In this document: positions 4,231 through 62,745 of the stretch, one piece after another
Layout of the letters: each line of letters begins with the position of its first letter
How positions within the stretch are numbered: position 1 is the stretch's first letter
Assembly: GCA_001816585.1 (NCBI GenBank)
Contig: MHCJ01000003.1
Span: 11,013-75,012, forward strand
Length of the DNA: 64,000 nt
Direction: 5' to 3'
From: Candidatus Chisholmbacteria bacterium RIFCSPHIGHO2_01_FULL_52_32
GTDB taxonomy: Bacteria > Patescibacteriota > Microgenomatia > UBA1400 > Chisholmbacteraceae
Translations under genes and position numbers: made by a program
The notes under the pieces: generated by a model
Told to the model about the DNA's origin: nothing
Seen by the model: the letters and a program-made list of their open reading frames with translations, nothing else
Databases searched by the model: none

Positions 4231-4357
4231 AGATAGCGTATAGCATATGGCGAATGGCAGATAGCAAATAGCAGATAGCGAATGGCGAATAGCCAATAGC
4301 AAATTTCTCATTTCTCCCTCAACCCTCAACCCTCAACCCTCAACCCTCAACCCTAAG
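4231..4357. repeat. Tandem heptanucleotide repeat tract (ATAGCGA-type then CCTCAAC-type)
   Basis: agatagc gtatagc atatggc gaatggc agatagc ... cctcaac x5, directly read in sequence after the rho stop. Confidence 0.85.
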
Positions 4358-5690
4358 CCTTCTGTGTTTTATACTTGTGTGCGTTTGATTGGAGAGTATT
4401 CGTTATCCAGGTTGTCGCCTGCTTCAGTCCTACGGAAGTTACCAGAATAAGGATGAGCAGGGTTGGAATGAGGTACCGTTCAAAACCTGGGAGCTTCACG
4501 CGGGCGTAGGCGATGTTGACGACAATCCAGAAGATGGAGAGGGAGAGCAGAGAATGGCTCTGTGGATCGTTTTTTGCTCTCCTTAAGAGGCTATACCATC
4601 CGAACAGGAGCAACAGTGTGAGGAGGCTTTGAACGATGCGATATTTTGAGATCGAGATAAATACTGTCAGGATGTAGAGCGGCATCTCGAGAAAGCTAAA
4701 CTGTCCGAACGCCCGATAGAAAAGTTCCTGCTGGAGGATTCGAGAGCCAAAGAGGGCTCCCGTGCCTCGGATGGGATCCGCCCAGATCTCCGGTTCCAAA
4801 AAGAAGAACGTGGCAAGGAAAGAAAGGGTATACCCCGCGCAGAAGAATAGGAATCTTTTCCATTGTTGTTTGGAAATTGTGCTTGGGTGGGTGAGACAAA
4901 GCAGGGAAAAGTATAACCAGGGGAAGAAGAGGAGGAAGACTCCGGGGAGTTTGATGCTCGTAGTACACGCAATGAGCATTCCCAGGACGAATGAGGAGAG
5001 AAAAATACGGCTGTTTGAAAGTCGGGGAAGCTGATGAAGTGTTGCGACAAGTGCAGTTCCACTGATGAGGAGGAAGAGGACAAAAAAGGCGTCGGCTGTG
5101 GCAATCCCAAAAGTATTCCTTATGAGCGGATGCCATGCGCTAAAGACAGCGATAGAAAAGCCGATTTTCCAGTCTCGGGTTATATTGGTAGCGATCCATG
5201 CGAGAAACAGGATGGCCAGCAAACCCGCCGCTACGGAGGCGTATCGGATGAGAAGGATCGCATCGGTCACCTCAGAACCGAGTATGATTGCGGCCTCCTC
5301 CAGCGTTTTCCCTGTCGGGAGTACGTCAGTGTGAACGATGGCGTAGAGCCGGGTGCTTGTTTCCTCATCGACCATTTTTCTCCCGGTGCTTTGCAAAAGG
5401 AAACCGATGAGGTATTTCCCGAATTGCGGCTGGTCGAGGAGGCGGCGCTTCTGTGTTTCCCACCGAAGATATTTGAAGTCTTTTGGCAGCGAAAACCGTT
5501 CCCAATTGTTGTTTCGGCGATGCGTATAGAATTGGGCATCCAAGATCCAGGGAACCTCGTCAATGGAGAGGGTTATTTTCGGGACTAGGGAAATCCACAA
5601 GCCGTAGATCCAATAAACCCCAAGCATAACCAAGGGAATTTGCCACAGAAGAGAGCGCCAATACCTCCTTTTTCGCATCGGCTTAATCAT
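4353..5690 (-). CDS. Polytopic integral membrane protein, possibly GT-C-type glycosyltransferase (PMT/ArnT-like)
   Basis: 445 aa with many predicted transmembrane helices. Weak resemblance to glycosyltransferase family 39/83 membrane enzymes; not a firm family call. Confidence 0.45.
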   Translation of the reverse strand: MIKPMRKRRYWRSLLWQIPLVMLGVYWIYGLWISLVPKITLSIDEVPWILDAQFYTHRRNNNWERFSLPKDFKYLRWETQKRRLLDQPQFGKYLIGFLLQSTGRKMVDEETSTRLYAIVHTDVLPTGKTLEEAAIILGSEVTDAILLIRYASVAAGLLAILFLAWIATNITRDWKIGFSIAVFSAWHPLIRNTFGIATADAFFVLFLLISGTALVATLHQLPRLSNSRIFLSSFVLGMLIACTTSIKLPGVFLLFFPWLYFSLLCLTHPSTISKQQWKRFLFFCAGYTLSFLATFFFLEPEIWADPIRGTGALFGSRILQQELFYRAFGQFSFLEMPLYILTVFISISKYRIVQSLLTLLLLFGWYSLLRRAKNDPQSHSLLSLSIFWIVVNIAYARVKLPGFERYLIPTLLILILVTSVGLKQATTWITNTLQSNAHKYKTQKA

Positions 5691-5724
5691 TGCACATGTA
5701 TATCTGCTGTGCTAGGATGCTTGC

Positions 5725-6852
5725 TTGTCCCTCAATTATGGGGGAAGTATGCAGAGATTGGTCCGTTTCTTCCTTGAACTCCGGGAGTTTTCCCTAGCTT
5801 TATTTTCCTTTGCCTCACACCGGCTGGGAGGCGCGTTTTGGCGGTTTGAGCGCGGGAAGGGATTTTTTGTTTCCGCGCTTTACCGAAGACGGGGGCGATA
5901 CGCTCAGCCGTTTATCCATTCGGCAATGGCTGGTTTGGTGTTTGTTGCGGTCACGTTCGGGCCGCTTTTTATTGCCCAAACCTTTCCCGGCCAGGCCTCG
6001 TCGTTTGAGGAAGCATTACCCTCCGCGATCATCTTGGGGACTACTGCTGATTATGACCCTCCGGTTACCACCCTCATTTCCGAAAAGCCAAGATCAGAAG
6101 TGATTGAATACCAGGTTCAGACAGGGGATACGGTCAGTTCGATTGCCACAAAGTTCGGGGTTTCCATTGATACGGTGCTTTGGGCGAACGGAATGACGGA
6201 AACGCAACGGATACAACCGGGACAGACTCTCAAGATCCCTCCGGTTACCGGTGTTGTTCATTCGGTGCGGAAAGGCGATACGATTTATTCGATTGCCAAG
6301 AAGTATGAGGCGGAGGCACAGGCCCTGGTTGACTTTCCTTTTAATACATTTACGAATGATGAGACGTTTGCTTTGGCTGTGGGACAGATTGTCATTGTTC
6401 CAGACGGCGTGTTACCGGAGGTGAAGCCGGTGTCACCGGAGTCGATGATTGCGAAGGTGTTGACGCCGAGCGCGGGTGCGGTTTCGGCAACCGGGAATTT
6501 CGTTTGGCCGGCGGCGGGGCGGATTACGCAGCGATACGTGTGGTACCACCGCGGCATCGACATCGCAAACAAGGATGGGGGGCCGATTTTGGCGGCTGAC
6601 AGCGGAACGGTGGTCGTTGCCGGATGGCCGGACGGTCAAGGGTATGCAAACCGGGTGATCATCGATCACGGAAACGGACTCACGACGCTGTATGCGCATA
6701 TGTCGCGGGTACGCGTGGTTGCGGGACAGACGGTCAGTCGCGGAGATGTGATCGGAGATATGGGATGTACCGGCCGCTGTACCGGGACTCACCTTCACTT
6801 TGAGATCCGGGGCGGGGGCGGTTTTATGAACCCATCGGAGTATTTGAAGTGA
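5725..6852 (+). CDS. LysM-domain M23 family metallopeptidase (peptidoglycan hydrolase)
   Basis: Two LysM repeats (YQVQTGDTVSSIATKFGVS; HSVRKGDTIYSIAKKY) followed by an M23 core (HRGIDIA ... GCTGRCTGTHLHFEIR). The start could be TTG at 5725 or ATG at 5749. Confidence 0.85.
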   Translation: MSLNYGGSMQRLVRFFLELREFSLALFSFASHRLGGAFWRFERGKGFFVSALYRRRGRYAQPFIHSAMAGLVFVAVTFGPLFIAQTFPGQASSFEEALPSAIILGTTADYDPPVTTLISEKPRSEVIEYQVQTGDTVSSIATKFGVSIDTVLWANGMTETQRIQPGQTLKIPPVTGVVHSVRKGDTIYSIAKKYEAEAQALVDFPFNTFTNDETFALAVGQIVIVPDGVLPEVKPVSPESMIAKVLTPSAGAVSATGNFVWPAAGRITQRYVWYHRGIDIANKDGGPILAADSGTVVVAGWPDGQGYANRVIIDHGNGLTTLYAHMSRVRVVAGQTVSRGDVIGDMGCTGRCTGTHLHFEIRGGGGFMNPSEYLK

Positions 6853-6920
6853 GAAATTAGCTTCTTCGCTTCTTGGCTGCGAAAATCTTGAGGGTTTAAC
6901 GAGAGAGTGCTGTCGGGGTT

Positions 6921-7166
6921 TTAGTTTCTGCAGGTAAAGATGCGGCAGCCATTTTCATCGCGGTCGATGGTCCACTCTGTCGAGCAAATTTTTCCGCGCG
7001 GGATGATTGGGGCTTCACAGTTCTTCGGGAAGTAGGCGCGCCCAAGGATGTTGGTTTGTTGGGTTAGTGCCCAGATGAGGAGAGGAATGGTTGCCAGCAT
7101 GAGAATGATGAGGAGGATGGCGAGTTTATGGTGGGAGAGAAGAATGGTTTTTGCCACTGAACTCAA
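6921..7166 (-). CDS. Small membrane protein with C-terminal Cys pairs (hypothetical)
   Basis: 81-aa track ORF with one TM helix (AILLIILMLATIPLLIW) and a CEAP...CRIFTC tail. Coordinates taken from the ORF track. Confidence 0.3.
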   Translation of the reverse strand: MSSVAKTILLSHHKLAILLIILMLATIPLLIWALTQQTNILGRAYFPKNCEAPIIPRGKICSTEWTIDRDENGCRIFTCRN

Positions 7167-61481: not shown

Positions 61482-61671
61482 ACCACTACGCACTATATCA
61501 GAGCGTTTCGCTTCGTGTCAACAGGAGATTTTCCGTATCAGTTTCCGACGGCTCAGGTTTCACTTCAGCTCAACTTGCGCTTCCCGAAAAAATTCCAGTT
61601 TGCTCGCTCGATCATACTGTCGTGCTTCGCATTCTGGAATTTAACGGGACGGCTCAGGTGGAGTTTCAGAG

Positions 61672-62100
61672 TTACTTCAACTCCACTTGAGCGCCTGCTT
61701 CTTCTAATTTTTTCTTAGCCTCTTGGGCCTCTTCCTTTTTGGCTCGCTCAAGGAGTTTTTGCGGAGTCTTTTCGACGAGTTCTTTGGCTTCCTTGAGACC
61801 CAGATCCTGTCTGATTTCGCGGACAGCCTTGATGACACCGATTTTGTTTGCACCCGAAGAGGCGAGGATGACATCGAACTCGCTTTGTTCCGGTACTGCT
61901 GGTTGGCCTGCAGCGGGAGCTCCGGGAGCTTGGGCCGCCGGCGCTTGAGCCATTGCCATCGGTTGAGCGGATACTCCGAACTTCTCTTCCAAAACCTTTA
62001 CCAGGTCTGAAAGATCGACGACGGTAAGCTTCTCAATTTCCTCGACGATCTTCTGAACGCTTCCGGCAAGTTTTTTCACTGCTTTTGGTTTGTCTGCCAT
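61672..62100 (-). CDS. rplL: 50S ribosomal protein L7/L12
   Basis: N-terminal dimerisation helix, Ala/Pro-rich hinge, C-terminal ...[24 protein letters not shown]. Confidence 0.92.
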
Positions 62101-62149
62101 AATTAACTCACCCCCTTTATGATTAGCGTCTAGCGTTTAGTGTCTCTGT

Positions 62150-62689
62150 TTAGTTTGCGGGTTTAGCTTCTTTTATTGCTTTAAGAACAAAGACGAGTTT
62201 TTTGTAGTTTCCCGAAAGGACATGGACAAGGCGTGATATCGGTGTGTTCAGCGAGCCGATGAGCTGGGATCGGAGTTGGTCTTTGGTCGGAAGCTCGGCG
62301 AGCTCGTTAATCTCTTCTTCGGACAGCAGTCTCTCCGACGGTTTTAGCCAGATACCAAGCTTGGATTTTGGCAACTCATGTTCCTTGGAAAATTCAATGA
62401 GTGCCTTGATCGGAGCGATCTCGTCCTCAAAGGCAAAAAGGAAGGCTGTTGGACCCCGCAAAACGTCTTCGACGTCGCGGGGCAAGCCCTTTCTCTTCTC
62501 TTGAAATGCGAGCTTAAAGAGCGTGTTCTTGGCAACGAGGAATTGGCCACCGGTTTGGGTTATTTTTTCCCTGAGATCCCGTTGGAGATTCACCGGAAGG
62601 CCCGAATAATCTGAAAGGATGACCAGCTTTGCACGGGAGAGCTTGTCTGAAAGGTCCCGGACGGCAGTGATGTTTTGTTGGGAAGGCAT
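62150..62689 (-). CDS. rplJ: 50S ribosomal protein L10
   Basis: MPSQQNITAVRDLSDKLSRAKLVILSDYSGLPVNLQRDLREKI, located immediately upstream of rplL. ATG at 62689; the track ORF extends to 62779 through the repeat tract. Confidence 0.88.
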   Translation of the reverse strand: MPSQQNITAVRDLSDKLSRAKLVILSDYSGLPVNLQRDLREKITQTGGQFLVAKNTLFKLAFQEKRKGLPRDVEDVLRGPTAFLFAFEDEIAPIKALIEFSKEHELPKSKLGIWLKPSERLLSEEEINELAELPTKDQLRSQLIGSLNTPISRLVHVLSGNYKKLVFVLKAIKEAKPAN

Positions 62690-62745
62690 ACAGATAGGGT
62701 TTAGGGTATAGGGTCTAGGGTTTAGTGTCTCGAATAAAAGAAAGC
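62690..62745. repeat. Heptamer repeat tract (TAGGGTx) in the rplJ leader
   Basis: cagatagggtttagggtatagggtctagggtttagtgtctcg. Confidence 0.75.

Follow-up and report, generated by a model that had tools for sequence, protein, structure and literature searches.

A 64,000-nucleotide stretch of the genome of Candidatus Chisholmbacteria bacterium RIFCSPHIGHO2_01_FULL_52_32 (contig MHCJ01000003.1 of assembly GCA_001816585.1, positions 11,013 to 75,012; hereafter, the window) carries many short tandem arrays of 7-nucleotide units, both between genes and, in frame, within them (Table 1). The arrays belong to a known but unexplained kind of repeat, described variously as short tandemly repeated repetitive (STRR) sequences, long simple sequence repeats (LSSRs), and G-rich heptamer simple sequence repeats (SSRs). 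On the reading that we favor, with a probability of roughly 0.6, they are heptamer microsatellites of the STRR/LSSR type, which would be made and homogenized by slippage or template switching and filtered by the reading frame inside genes, and one G-rich family of which has a putative role at the transcript level.

Period-7 arrays in the window and its relatives

The excess of tandem repeats in the window was specific to a period of 7 nt. Tandem Repeats Finder (TRF) returned 69 rows, among which period 7 was dominant, and a lag-match scan detected 32 period-7 tracts (1039 bp in total), compared with none at periods 4, 5, and 10 and one to three each at periods 6, 8, 9, 11, and 12. This corresponds to 50 tracts per 100 kb for period 7 and 0–4.7 for the other periods among 4–12. 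In 100 dinucleotide-preserving shuffles of the window, the mean number of period-7 tracts was 0.45 and the maximum was 2. As in LSSRs, units of 5–11 nt are thus repeated head-to-tail beyond the expectation from composition, and heptanucleotides predominate. When tallied by gene context, the arrays numbered 37, with about 13 inside open reading frames (ORFs) and 24 in the non-coding 14% of the window (p ~1e-12). An array was present in 13–15 of the 43 gaps of more than 40 nt between genes, the highest copy number was about 10, and two blocks (20.4–29.7 kb and 49.1–62.1 kb) were free of arrays.

These results bear out a first-pass annotation of the same DNA, which had reported tandem 7-mer tracts in a few unit classes, often with a switch of class midway along a tract (both directly visible in the sequence), and had proposed comparisons with periods 6 and 8 and with gene boundaries. 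Thirteen of its 14 example tracts hold period-7 arrays; the remaining one, at 59700–59760, is GGTAGTAA x3.1 with a period of 8. The annotation also overstated the density of the tracts, said to fill almost every intergenic region, and their length, given as up to 15 copies. It described the arrays between genes and missed those in RadA, leucyl-tRNA synthetase (LeuRS), arginyl-tRNA synthetase (ArgRS), and the N-termini of two other ORFs.

The arrays were reproduced in independent assemblies and are not the assembly artefacts that the annotation had named as a possible refutation. Ten loci from ENA, Logan, and JGI assemblies, recovered by exact-protein look-ups, matched the window at 99.87–100% identity, and their alignments ran through the arrays with zero gaps. 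The gap-free alignments spanned positions 29329–50477 and 353–9690, and the longest arrays (4233–4354) were identical in the JGI contig L162. Variant contigs differed by 1–11 single-nucleotide polymorphisms (SNPs) and by no indel, and one SNP, at 39277, fell within an array. The arrays are real, and they are without length polymorphism in the sampled populations; a check on copy-number variation proposed with the first description therefore gave a negative result among the contigs from other samples. That the arrays are assembly or sequencing artefacts, or internally captured telomere-type repeats, is hardly credible. Although TTTAGGG is the plant telomere unit and several short contigs (two Logan contigs, L081, and L163) end within or beside arrays, the sequence is identical across assemblers and samples, arrays are kept at orthologous sites in other genomes, and the reading frames hold through them. 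Contig ends at arrays are the effect expected of dispersed repeats in de Bruijn graph assembly. The "telomere-like" appearance of TAGGGTT is merely coincidental; these are internal tracts adjoining stop codons.

With zero indels in the ten fetched loci, at the level of assemblies, the arrays also differ from the phase-variable contingency-locus SSRs of Haemophilus and Neisseria, in which copy number switches genes. Both consist of short tandem units near or in genes, but the window genes concerned encode aminoacyl-tRNA synthetases, ribosomal proteins, and metabolic enzymes, and the frame is always kept.

The arrays are a trait of an entire clade of Microgenomates bacteria, which belong to the candidate phyla radiation (CPR), in agreement with the earlier suggestion of a lineage-specific repeat system. 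The best relatives of the window LeuRS fall in Microgenomates, the closest being that of Candidatus Chisholmbacteria RIFCSPLOWO2_01_FULL_49_14 (64% identity), whose locus, L001, is syntenic with positions 342–20264 of the window. Period-7 arrays occurred at 17 per 100 kb over 513 kb of CPR-like loci, compared with 3.9 per 100 kb over 642 kb of other bacteria, where the value was about the level of periods 6, 9, and 12. Loci of relatives within the clade thus hold such arrays, and L001 and L082 each include one array of the G-rich family described below, which overlaps a sense stop codon or lies 3 nt past it. A period-9 excess in Gottesmanbacteria loci was considered as a sister phenomenon and rejected; its units are GTTGCACCC-type collagen-like Gly-X-Y coding repeats (on the other strand) in giant genes and are unrelated. 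These giant genes adjoin LeuRS (L010, 1–4000; L008, 600–8400; L012, 400–4100) and contain 9-nt repeats within 189-nt super-repeats, with 86 period-9 tracts in 22 kb of L010.

Unit families and placement between genes

The units fall into a few families, each reused at many loci: G (TAGGGTN, TAGGCAN, TTGAGGG), A (TAGCGAA, TGGCGAA, TAGCGTC), K (AGTTAAA, AGTGAAA, and TTTTGAC on the opposite strand), T (NNACTGA, appearing as CTGAATA and TCAGTCN), R (CGAAGCA), and F (ATTTCGG, TTTCGAA). The units CCTCAAC and CCCTCAA are the opposite-strand reading of the G-rich GTTGAGG and TTGAGGG, of the TAGGGTT family. The G family occupied a characteristic place: nine of its 11 arrays lay on the sense strand, 0–4 nt after a stop codon (gene ends 4353(-), 7277(-), 20264(+), 30392(+), 34079(-), 39188(+), 40477(+), 45908(+), and 47615(+)), and in three of these nine the stop codon lay inside the array or overlapped its end. 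The other two were antisense and ended 4–5 nt before an ATG, so that the mRNA reads CCCTAAA; one precedes the zinc-ribbon ORF 7277–7453(-), and the other precedes rplJ, just downstream of the Rfam L10 leader. Copy numbers in this family ranged from 2.6 to 6.4 (median ~4.6). Only one of the seven divergent gaps held an array of any kind. A different family usually supplied a second array behind the G array; this second array ran towards the start of the next gene, and its units correspond in reverse complement to those of family A, T, or K. The composite 3' of NDK is kept in L001, where the NDK protein is 67% identical, with a shared layout of "aga", the G array, "a(g/c)aagtc", a TTCAGT array, and a hairpin resembling repetitive extragenic palindromic (REP) sequences. 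In L081, which encodes an 83%-identical orthologue of the family 5 glycosyltransferase (GT5), the first array after the gene is of the AGTTAAA type instead of ATAGGGT, and the second array is kept and forms an inverted pair with the first.

STRR heptamers were reportedly described in heterocystous cyanobacteria by Mazel et al. in 1990, and family-structured arrays are said to have been known in cyanobacteria since then. Like the window arrays, they consist of few unit families dispersed over the genome, are mainly non-coding, and are restricted to a lineage; their units CCCCAGT, TTGGTCA, and CAACAGT are absent from the window array list, and the host here is a Microgenomates bacterium encoding Rho. 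The first-pass judgement that nothing known explains the arrays was too strong, given the family-structured heptamer arrays described in Xanthomonas and Nostoc (PMC4692102) and in Beggiatoaceae and cyanobacteria (PMC4679880). In the survey of Mrazek, Guo and Shah (2007), as it is cited in PMC4679880, heptanucleotides are the commonest unit of prokaryotic LSSRs, slippage related to the polymerase footprint is proposed, and units in multiples of three dominate coding DNA. On that account, LSSRs share with the window arrays tandem 7-nt units far above chance, a few dispersed families, a mainly non-coding position, restriction to a lineage, and slippage as the proposed origin. The window arrays differ from LSSRs and STRR sequences in their units, and in having many in-frame arrays in essential genes with a narrow 30–33 nt length mode. 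Units that are not a multiple of three are largely excluded from coding DNA among LSSRs, whereas 13 of the 37 window arrays lie in ORFs.

Rehm et al. (2015; PMC4692102) described the intergenic quadruplex-forming heptamers GGGNATC and GGGGA(C/T)T of Xanthomonas and Nostoc, which prefer four units, lie within 50 nt past a stop codon in sense orientation (stop overlap included) or shortly upstream of an ORF in antisense orientation, seldom occur between divergent ORFs, and are of no established function. The window G family, with the nine sense and two antisense arrays and the single divergent gap mentioned above, follows the same placement rule. It too is a strongly intergenic heptamer with a run of three Gs, its mode may likewise be about four units, and both repeats are tied to housekeeping rather than surface genes. 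However, its unit is TAGGGTN or TTGAGGG (GGGNATC arrays are absent from the window), four GGG runs are present in only about 60% of its arrays, it usually precedes a second array from a different family, and the host belongs to the CPR; furthermore, Xcc and Xac differ extensively from each other, whereas no length variation was seen here. In marine Beggiatoaceae, cyanobacteria, and Bacteroidetes, direct TAACTGA repeats of 2–6 copies adjoin start codons and overlap upstream stop codons, carry stops in all three frames, and have few ribosome-binding sites nearby (MacGregor 2015; PMC4679880). The window arrays are likewise found by start codons and upstream stops, with stop-bearing units, scarce ribosome-binding sites, and a few cases in ORFs, and the CTGAATA and TCAGTCN arrays have the same ACTGA core. 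In contrast, the window arrays form several families and not a single one (heptamers of related sequence seldom occur as repeats in BOGUAY; PMC4679880), and the window contains no exact TAACTGA array, with only two matches, AAACTGA and TGACTGA, each at two mismatches. Literature searches found no report of such arrays in the CPR or Microgenomates. As far as these searches show, the new features are the CPR host, the co-existence of several families as ordered composites, the many arrays that lie in frame in aminoacyl-tRNA synthetases and have a frame-filtered length mode, and the persistence of array sites beyond that of their unit sequence. In Xanthomonas and Beggiatoaceae, heptamer arrays were described in 2015, without an established account of their mechanism or function, and the same placement rules (sense at the stop, antisense at the start, ~4–5 units) in a tiny streamlined CPR genome mean that they are no peculiarity of large genomes.

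The arrays are not terminators, and they do not mark operons. CRISPR repeats are 23–50 nt long with unique spacers, whereas these units are 7 nt long and contiguous; they are not palindromic, which sets them apart from REP and REPIN elements, and the GC-rich hairpin and T run of intrinsic terminators do not occur at them, as the first-pass annotation had already recognized. RNA folds of the composites of a G array and a second array were weaker than those of shuffles (z +1 to +2), and a scan of the 30–50 kb region gave 30 terminator-like sites against 25.4 +/- 6.5 expected, none of them at an array. With folds this weak and a terminator scan at chance level, a hairpin or terminator role of the bipartite intergenic arrays was rejected. 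The annotation's further suggestion of operon boundaries fails because arrays lie inside the rplJ–rplL operon (62124–62145), between adjacent glycogen-metabolism genes (47616–47699 and 48864–49046), and within coding sequences; another is found between the L10 leader and the rplJ start (62695–62725). As a general explanation, the G-quadruplex was rejected as well: the window contains 10 G-quadruplex (G4) motifs against 4.3 expected, and only 6–7 come from arrays.

A role of the G family at the transcript level is nevertheless probable, judging from its fixed place and polarity and from the parallel with the Xanthomonas and Nostoc GGGNATC repeats. The family, of the form (T/G)NAGGGT, may act as a module of the 3' or 5' untranslated region, either as a spacer that can form a G-quadruplex or is deliberately kept unstructured, or as a site to which a protein binds. 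A wider proposal is that a protein which binds nucleic acids periodically uses the arrays in general as its sites, so that they would amount to a code for regulation or punctuation in which the 7-nt periodicity itself is selected; this we consider unlikely. HutP recognizes UAG-N4 repeats, and proteins of the ToxR and SARP classes bind heptamer direct repeats, the ToxR-type winged helix binding tandem heptads (TTTTGAT upstream of ctxAB). The ctxAB heptads are also named in bioRxiv 10.1101/2021.05.14.444153. Candidate readers would be a HutP-like RNA binder or an OmpR/ToxR-type winged helix on tandem heptads, and such a protein would account for the recurrence of UAG at 7-nt intervals in families G and A, for the fixed placement at stop and start codons, for the accessible, unstructured state of the composite G arrays, and for the persistence of an array at one ArgRS site despite complete turnover of its unit. 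According to a preprint on Nostoc, heptamer repeats modulate the expression of recF and recO via a postulated partner. The window itself encodes a 226-aa protein (ORF 16696–17376(+)) whose only recognizable domain is a C-terminal OmpR/PhoB-type winged helix (Trans_reg_C), with no receiver domain detected; its candidacy as an array binder is speculative. However, the six or more unrelated unit families would call for several readers in a genome of ~1 Mb, recognition of a particular sequence is disfavored by the unit turnover at one site, the ORFs that were scanned yielded no HutP-like domain, and a third of the window, with many genes, has no arrays.

Many ATG codons are preceded at 9–20 nt by TATACT- or TATAAT-like boxes (for example, 14594–14610, 20412–20431, 33966–33985(-), 38094–38115(-), 46071–46091, 52626–52645(-), and 53209–53228(-)), and Shine-Dalgarno-like motifs are rare, which suggests that most genes have a promoter and that their mRNAs carry no leader or a very short one. 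In that case, the arrays would sit between a stop codon and the next promoter. In L001 (9954–10005), GGAGTAA x7.4 runs into the LeuRS start codon, giving seven Shine-Dalgarno-like GGAG motifs, each followed by TAA; at the same place before the window LeuRS (~8822–8835), there are only two GGAGTAA copies.

Arrays in coding sequences and the ArgRS sites

The arrays inside genes were read through in frame, and a copy that would put TAA or TAG in phase carried a substitution (AAGTTAA to AAGTGAA in ArgRS and ATAGCAT to ATGGCAT in RadA). At the sequence level, this removal of in-phase stops is evidence for the translation of the coding arrays. Among 143 arrays from the window and the CPR loci, a sample biased towards LeuRS and ArgRS, 74 were coding. 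Of these, 39 were 30–33 nt long and none exceeded 37 nt; the intergenic arrays ranged from 16 to 82 nt. Perfect arrays made up 43% of the coding set versus 17% of the intergenic set. A typical coding array consisted of four exact units plus 3–4 nt, with unrelated flanks. This shape fits a seed of one unit with a short microhomology to which three units (21 nt) were then added; the reading frame is preserved by a step of three units alone.

One alignment position of ArgRS was arrayed in seven genomes with five unrelated units, all arrays having the same length and each being nearly perfect. The units at this position (site 1) were ATTTCGG in the window, ATTTCGA in L002, AGAATTN in L015, AGCTATC (x4.4) in L057, AAGTCGA (x4.6) in L019, and TCAAGGG (x2.7) in L011. 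At a second position (site 2), the pairs CGAAGCA + TTTCGAA (window), AAAGCTC + ATTGGTC (L015), and AGCTATC + GCTGTCA (L057) were found, and L001 had no array. The R and F arrays of the window ArgRS recur at the same positions in L001 and L002 (61–63% protein identity), and the copies within an array change together, as from ATTTCGG to ATTTCGA. Since one position keeps homogeneous arrays while the unit turns over, the pattern is one of concerted evolution, in which the sites are old, the arrays are internally homogeneous, and the unit sequence drifts; an origin by slippage or recombination, as proposed in the first-pass annotation, fits this pattern. When the ArgRS is aligned with the solved enzyme of P. 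horikoshii, the segments encoded by arrays pair with segments of the same length and require no gaps, indicating that the arrays occupy variable surface segments and are not simple insertions. The site thus offers a natural experiment in which concerted evolution, the frame filter, and the question "why seven?" are testable by comparative genomics.

Some pairs of arrays are partly complementary and, in RNA folding, form zipper-like hairpins with helices of ~5 bp that are interrupted every 7 nt. The fold z-scores were -4.4 and -2.35 for sites 1 and 2 of the window ArgRS, and -4.8 (L057), -5.4 (L032), -4.0 (L088), -4.0 (L021), and -2.8 (L015) in relatives. Adjacent arrays were related by inversion (<=2 mismatches per unit) in nine of 29 pairs, compared with 13% of random pairs. 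Furthermore, the composite CGAAGCA + TTTCGR recurs at different ArgRS and LeuRS sites across several genomes, which hints at template switching or copying between sites.

Such pairs raise the alternative that the arrays are tiny mobile or templated insertion elements, with hairpin-forming pairs copied into new sites, some of them in frame within genes. The model for this would be the Rickettsia palindromic elements, which Ogata et al. in 2000 are said to have found as in-frame, hairpin-forming repeats in housekeeping genes. Those elements are 100–150 bp long, have a conserved sequence, and contain no tandem heptamers. The ArgRS and LeuRS pairs resemble them in being hairpin DNA that lies in frame in housekeeping genes and is translated in variable, tolerant parts of the protein; they differ in being microsatellites with unrelated flanks, lacking a conserved element sequence and discrete boundaries. 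We regard this alternative as quite unlikely, even though it would explain why CGAAGCA + TTTCGA/G is found at two ArgRS sites of the window, at a LeuRS site of both L001 and L003, and at one ArgRS site of L002 and is absent from ArgRS site 2 of L001, why five of the paired arrays fold so strongly (z -4.0 to -5.4), and why adjacent arrays are so often inverted. Stepwise growth of a period-7 array is impossible in an essential gene, and the window contains REP-like hairpins, one pair of them inside the family 4 glycosyltransferase (GT4) gene, and a Y1 transposase resembling the REP-associated tyrosine transposases (RAYTs). Against copying of this kind, arrays of the same unit share no flank, and neither conserved flanks nor target-site duplications were found around the arrays when they were looked for. 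Moreover, most composites in the window are not complementary, the gap-free ArgRS alignment excludes simple insertion, the mobile-looking regions are without arrays, and the RAYT goes with a different repeat.

Formation of the arrays and other elements in the window

In the microsatellite reading, replication slippage, or template switching in a 7-nt register, would create the arrays and keep them homogeneous, resulting in the concerted evolution of their units. Inside genes, a selection filter would let only stop-free units and three-unit (21 nt) length changes survive, which would produce the sharp 30–33 nt mode; between genes, the length would be free. Arrays would accumulate only in long-resident core DNA, with two blocks, one of which carries mobile-element genes, left without them.

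Several points weigh against this account. For a single-copy seed in an essential gene to gain three units in one step is beyond simple slippage, which therefore leaves the origin of the coding arrays unexplained. Nor does local slippage alone predict the reuse of units at unrelated loci (TAGGGTN at 11 loci and CGAAGCA twice in ArgRS). Because no copy-number variation was seen among the assembled contigs of other samples, including the variants at 99.87–99.97% identity, slippage must be slow or the sampled populations nearly clonal. As for the G family, only 6–7 of its 11 arrays have four GGG runs (G3N1-7 x4), so that a G-quadruplex is not a universal function, and the mode of 4–5 units holds also for units without G runs.

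The arrays could also be neutral microsatellites, the functionless junk of a slippage-prone replisome. Heptamers are the commonest long-SSR unit of many prokaryotes, with slippage related to the polymerase footprint as a proposed cause (Mrazek 2007, as cited in PMC4679880 and PMC4692102), units turn over between relatives, and arrays have been gained or lost between the window, L081, and L001. However, pure neutrality is improbable in view of the G arrays lying 0–4 nt from stops with fixed polarity at nine gene ends, the NDK composite kept across deep divergence, the lack of length polymorphism among assemblies, and the small number of families, each reused many times. At the other extreme, the 7-base periodicity itself might be actively maintained in Microgenomates, by a homogenizing or templating machinery or through selection by a periodic nucleic-acid-binding factor. 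We think this distinctly doubtful; if true, arrays would persist at fixed codon and stop or start positions while their sequence turns over completely, and they would be a new kind of genome "punctuation", not ordinary microsatellite noise. In practical terms, short-read assemblies are broken at the arrays, which also cause inflated or shifted gene calls and place odd peptides in aminoacyl-tRNA synthetases that serve as phylogenetic markers.

Table 1. Heptamer arrays of the window (window coordinates, with strand; TRF, Tandem Repeats Finder)
Position	Unit and copies	Strand	Context
464..482	AACGCAA x2.7	+	inside RadA ORF (342-1757); TRF, lag scan
697..731	TAGCAAA/TGGCATA x5	+	in frame in RadA; in-phase TAG replaced by TGG
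756..771	ATACGCC x2.3	+	inside RadA
854..873	CAAAGTG x2.9	+	inside RadA
4233..4304	ATAGCGA/ATGGCGA x10.3	+	longest array; begins 3 nt past Rho stop (4229)
4316..4354	TTGAGGG x5.6, G family	-	first unit holds TAG stop of ORF 4353-5690(-); canonical G4 motif match
7201..7231	GACGCTA x4.4	-	second array of composite
7234..7278	GTTGAGG/GTCGAGG x6.4, G family	-	overlaps stop of 58-aa zinc-ribbon ORF 7277-7453(-)
7458..7490	TAGGCAN/TAGGGTN x4.7, G family	+	antisense relative to adjacent genes; ending 4-5 nt before zinc-ribbon ORF start
7509..7529	ATAGCGA/ATAGCCA x3	+	
9711..9741	AGTTCAA/AGTGAAA x4.4	+	in frame in LeuRS, peptide SSKFKVKSEK; L001 array at same site
14757..14781	CGAAGCA x3.6	+	in frame in ArgRS (KSEARSTKHE); zipper hairpin, left arm
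14843..14875	ATTTCGG x4.7, perfect	+	in frame in ArgRS (FGFRISDFGF); hairpin right arm; site arrayed in seven genomes
15193..15227	AAGTTAA x5	+	in frame in ArgRS; T>G removes in-phase TAA
16197..16224	CGAAGCA x4	+	second CGAAGCA array in ArgRS
16226..16260	TTTCGAA x5	+	in frame in ArgRS; partner arm
19758..19788	period-7 array	+	TRF, lag scan
20268..20307	TAGGCAN to TAGGGTA x5.7, G family	+	begins 3 nt past NDK stop; composite kept in L001
20311..20337	TTCAGTC-type x3.4	+	second array after NDK
30396..30433	AGGGTAT/TAGGGTN x5.4, G family	+	begins 3 nt past stop of ORF 29712-30392
30443..30477	TTCAGTC x5 (reverse complement NNACTGA)	+	second array
31867..31903	GCGTAGA x5.3 (sense strand TCTACGC)	+	within first codons of ORF 30504-31916(-)
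32524..32555	AGTTAAA x4.6	+	minus strand: read through in leader peptide of pilin-like ORF 31913-32608(-)
32592..32619	AATTTTG x4	+	overlaps start of pilin-like ORF 31913-32608(-)
33982..34035	CAGCCAT/TNNGCCA x7	-	second array; runs into TATACT box before ATG at 33965
34038..34074	AGGGTCT/AGGGTTT x5.3, G family	-	begins 4 nt past stop of ORF 34079-35197(-); G4 motif match
38114..38140	GCAGAGG-type x3.9	+	sole array found in a divergent gap
39192..39240	TAGGGTA TAGGGCT TAGGATT TAGCTTA ..., decaying G family	+	begins 3 nt past MreB stop
39269..39290	CTGAATA x3.1	+	one SNP in variant contig L079
40478..40502	TAGGCAT/TAGGGTN x3.6, G family	+	begins at base following GT4 gene stop
40549..40593	CTGAATA x6.4	+	
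45910..45942	GATAGGG/TTTAGGG x4.7, G family	+	begins 1 nt past stop of ORF 43488-45908; G4 motif match; two Logan contigs end here
45952..46030	TCAGTCN changing to TTNGCCA, ~11 units	+	second array
47619..47646	ATAGGGT x4, G family	+	begins 3 nt past glycogen-synthase-like GT5 stop; AGTTAAA-type in orthologue L081
47670..47702	TTTTGAC x4.7	+	second array; kept in L081 as AACTTTT
48874..48915	TATGAAT x6	+	
49002..49041	ATTCTTG-type x5.7	+	ends 5 nt before ATG at 49047
62124..62145	TAGCGTC x3.1	+	between rplJ and rplL (both minus strand), inside conserved operon
62695..62725	TAGGGTT x4.4, G family	+	antisense, CCCTAAA in mRNA; between L10 leader (62742-62851) and probable rplJ ATG at 62690

The genes of the window include RadA, Rho, a LysM-M23 peptidase, LeuRS, ComEA, ComEC, ArgRS, NDK, MreB, glycogen-metabolism genes, and rplKAJL. 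The array-free block at 20.4–29.7 kb encodes a TraG/TrwB-like coupling protein of type IV secretion systems, a Y1 transposase, tRNA-Pro, tRNA-Arg, and many small ORFs without Pfam matches, and the block at 49.1–62.1 kb consists mainly of ORFs without Pfam matches, with a lower GC content at 54–58 kb. Both may be recently acquired DNA, in which case the arrays would be a possible marker of residence time.

The window also contains a second, unrelated repeat family, consisting of hairpins of the type GACCTTGAAAGGTC, often in doublets, with 14 matches against 0.49 expected (sites include 20938–20966, 21447–21475, 21663–21691, 29668–29700, 39457–39485, and 51823–51851). One doublet lies inside the GT4 gene, and several hairpins lie in or next to the Y1 (IS200-like) transposase ORF 20959–21687(-), for which NCBIfam gives "REP-associated tyrosine transposase" as the top match, at 45 bits and thus under the cut-off of 80. 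Together, the hairpins and the transposase look like a REP/RAYT system in a CPR genome. Between RadA and rho (1758–2723), ~970 nt are without a long ORF. Long stretches of this gap, especially at 2150–2723, are conserved in L001 (4650–5170), and a "cgactgctttagtggtgggtgatgtgtagggc..." motif occurs there in duplicate. Rfam has no match to this conserved non-coding DNA ahead of rho, which may represent an extended leader of rho or an RNA not yet described. The same gap holds a small conserved basic ORF (~1949–2110) ending in ...LDQKLILMGK. Finally, two tRNA-Ala genes with the anticodons GGC and CGC abut each other at 7533–7682(-) with zero spacer.

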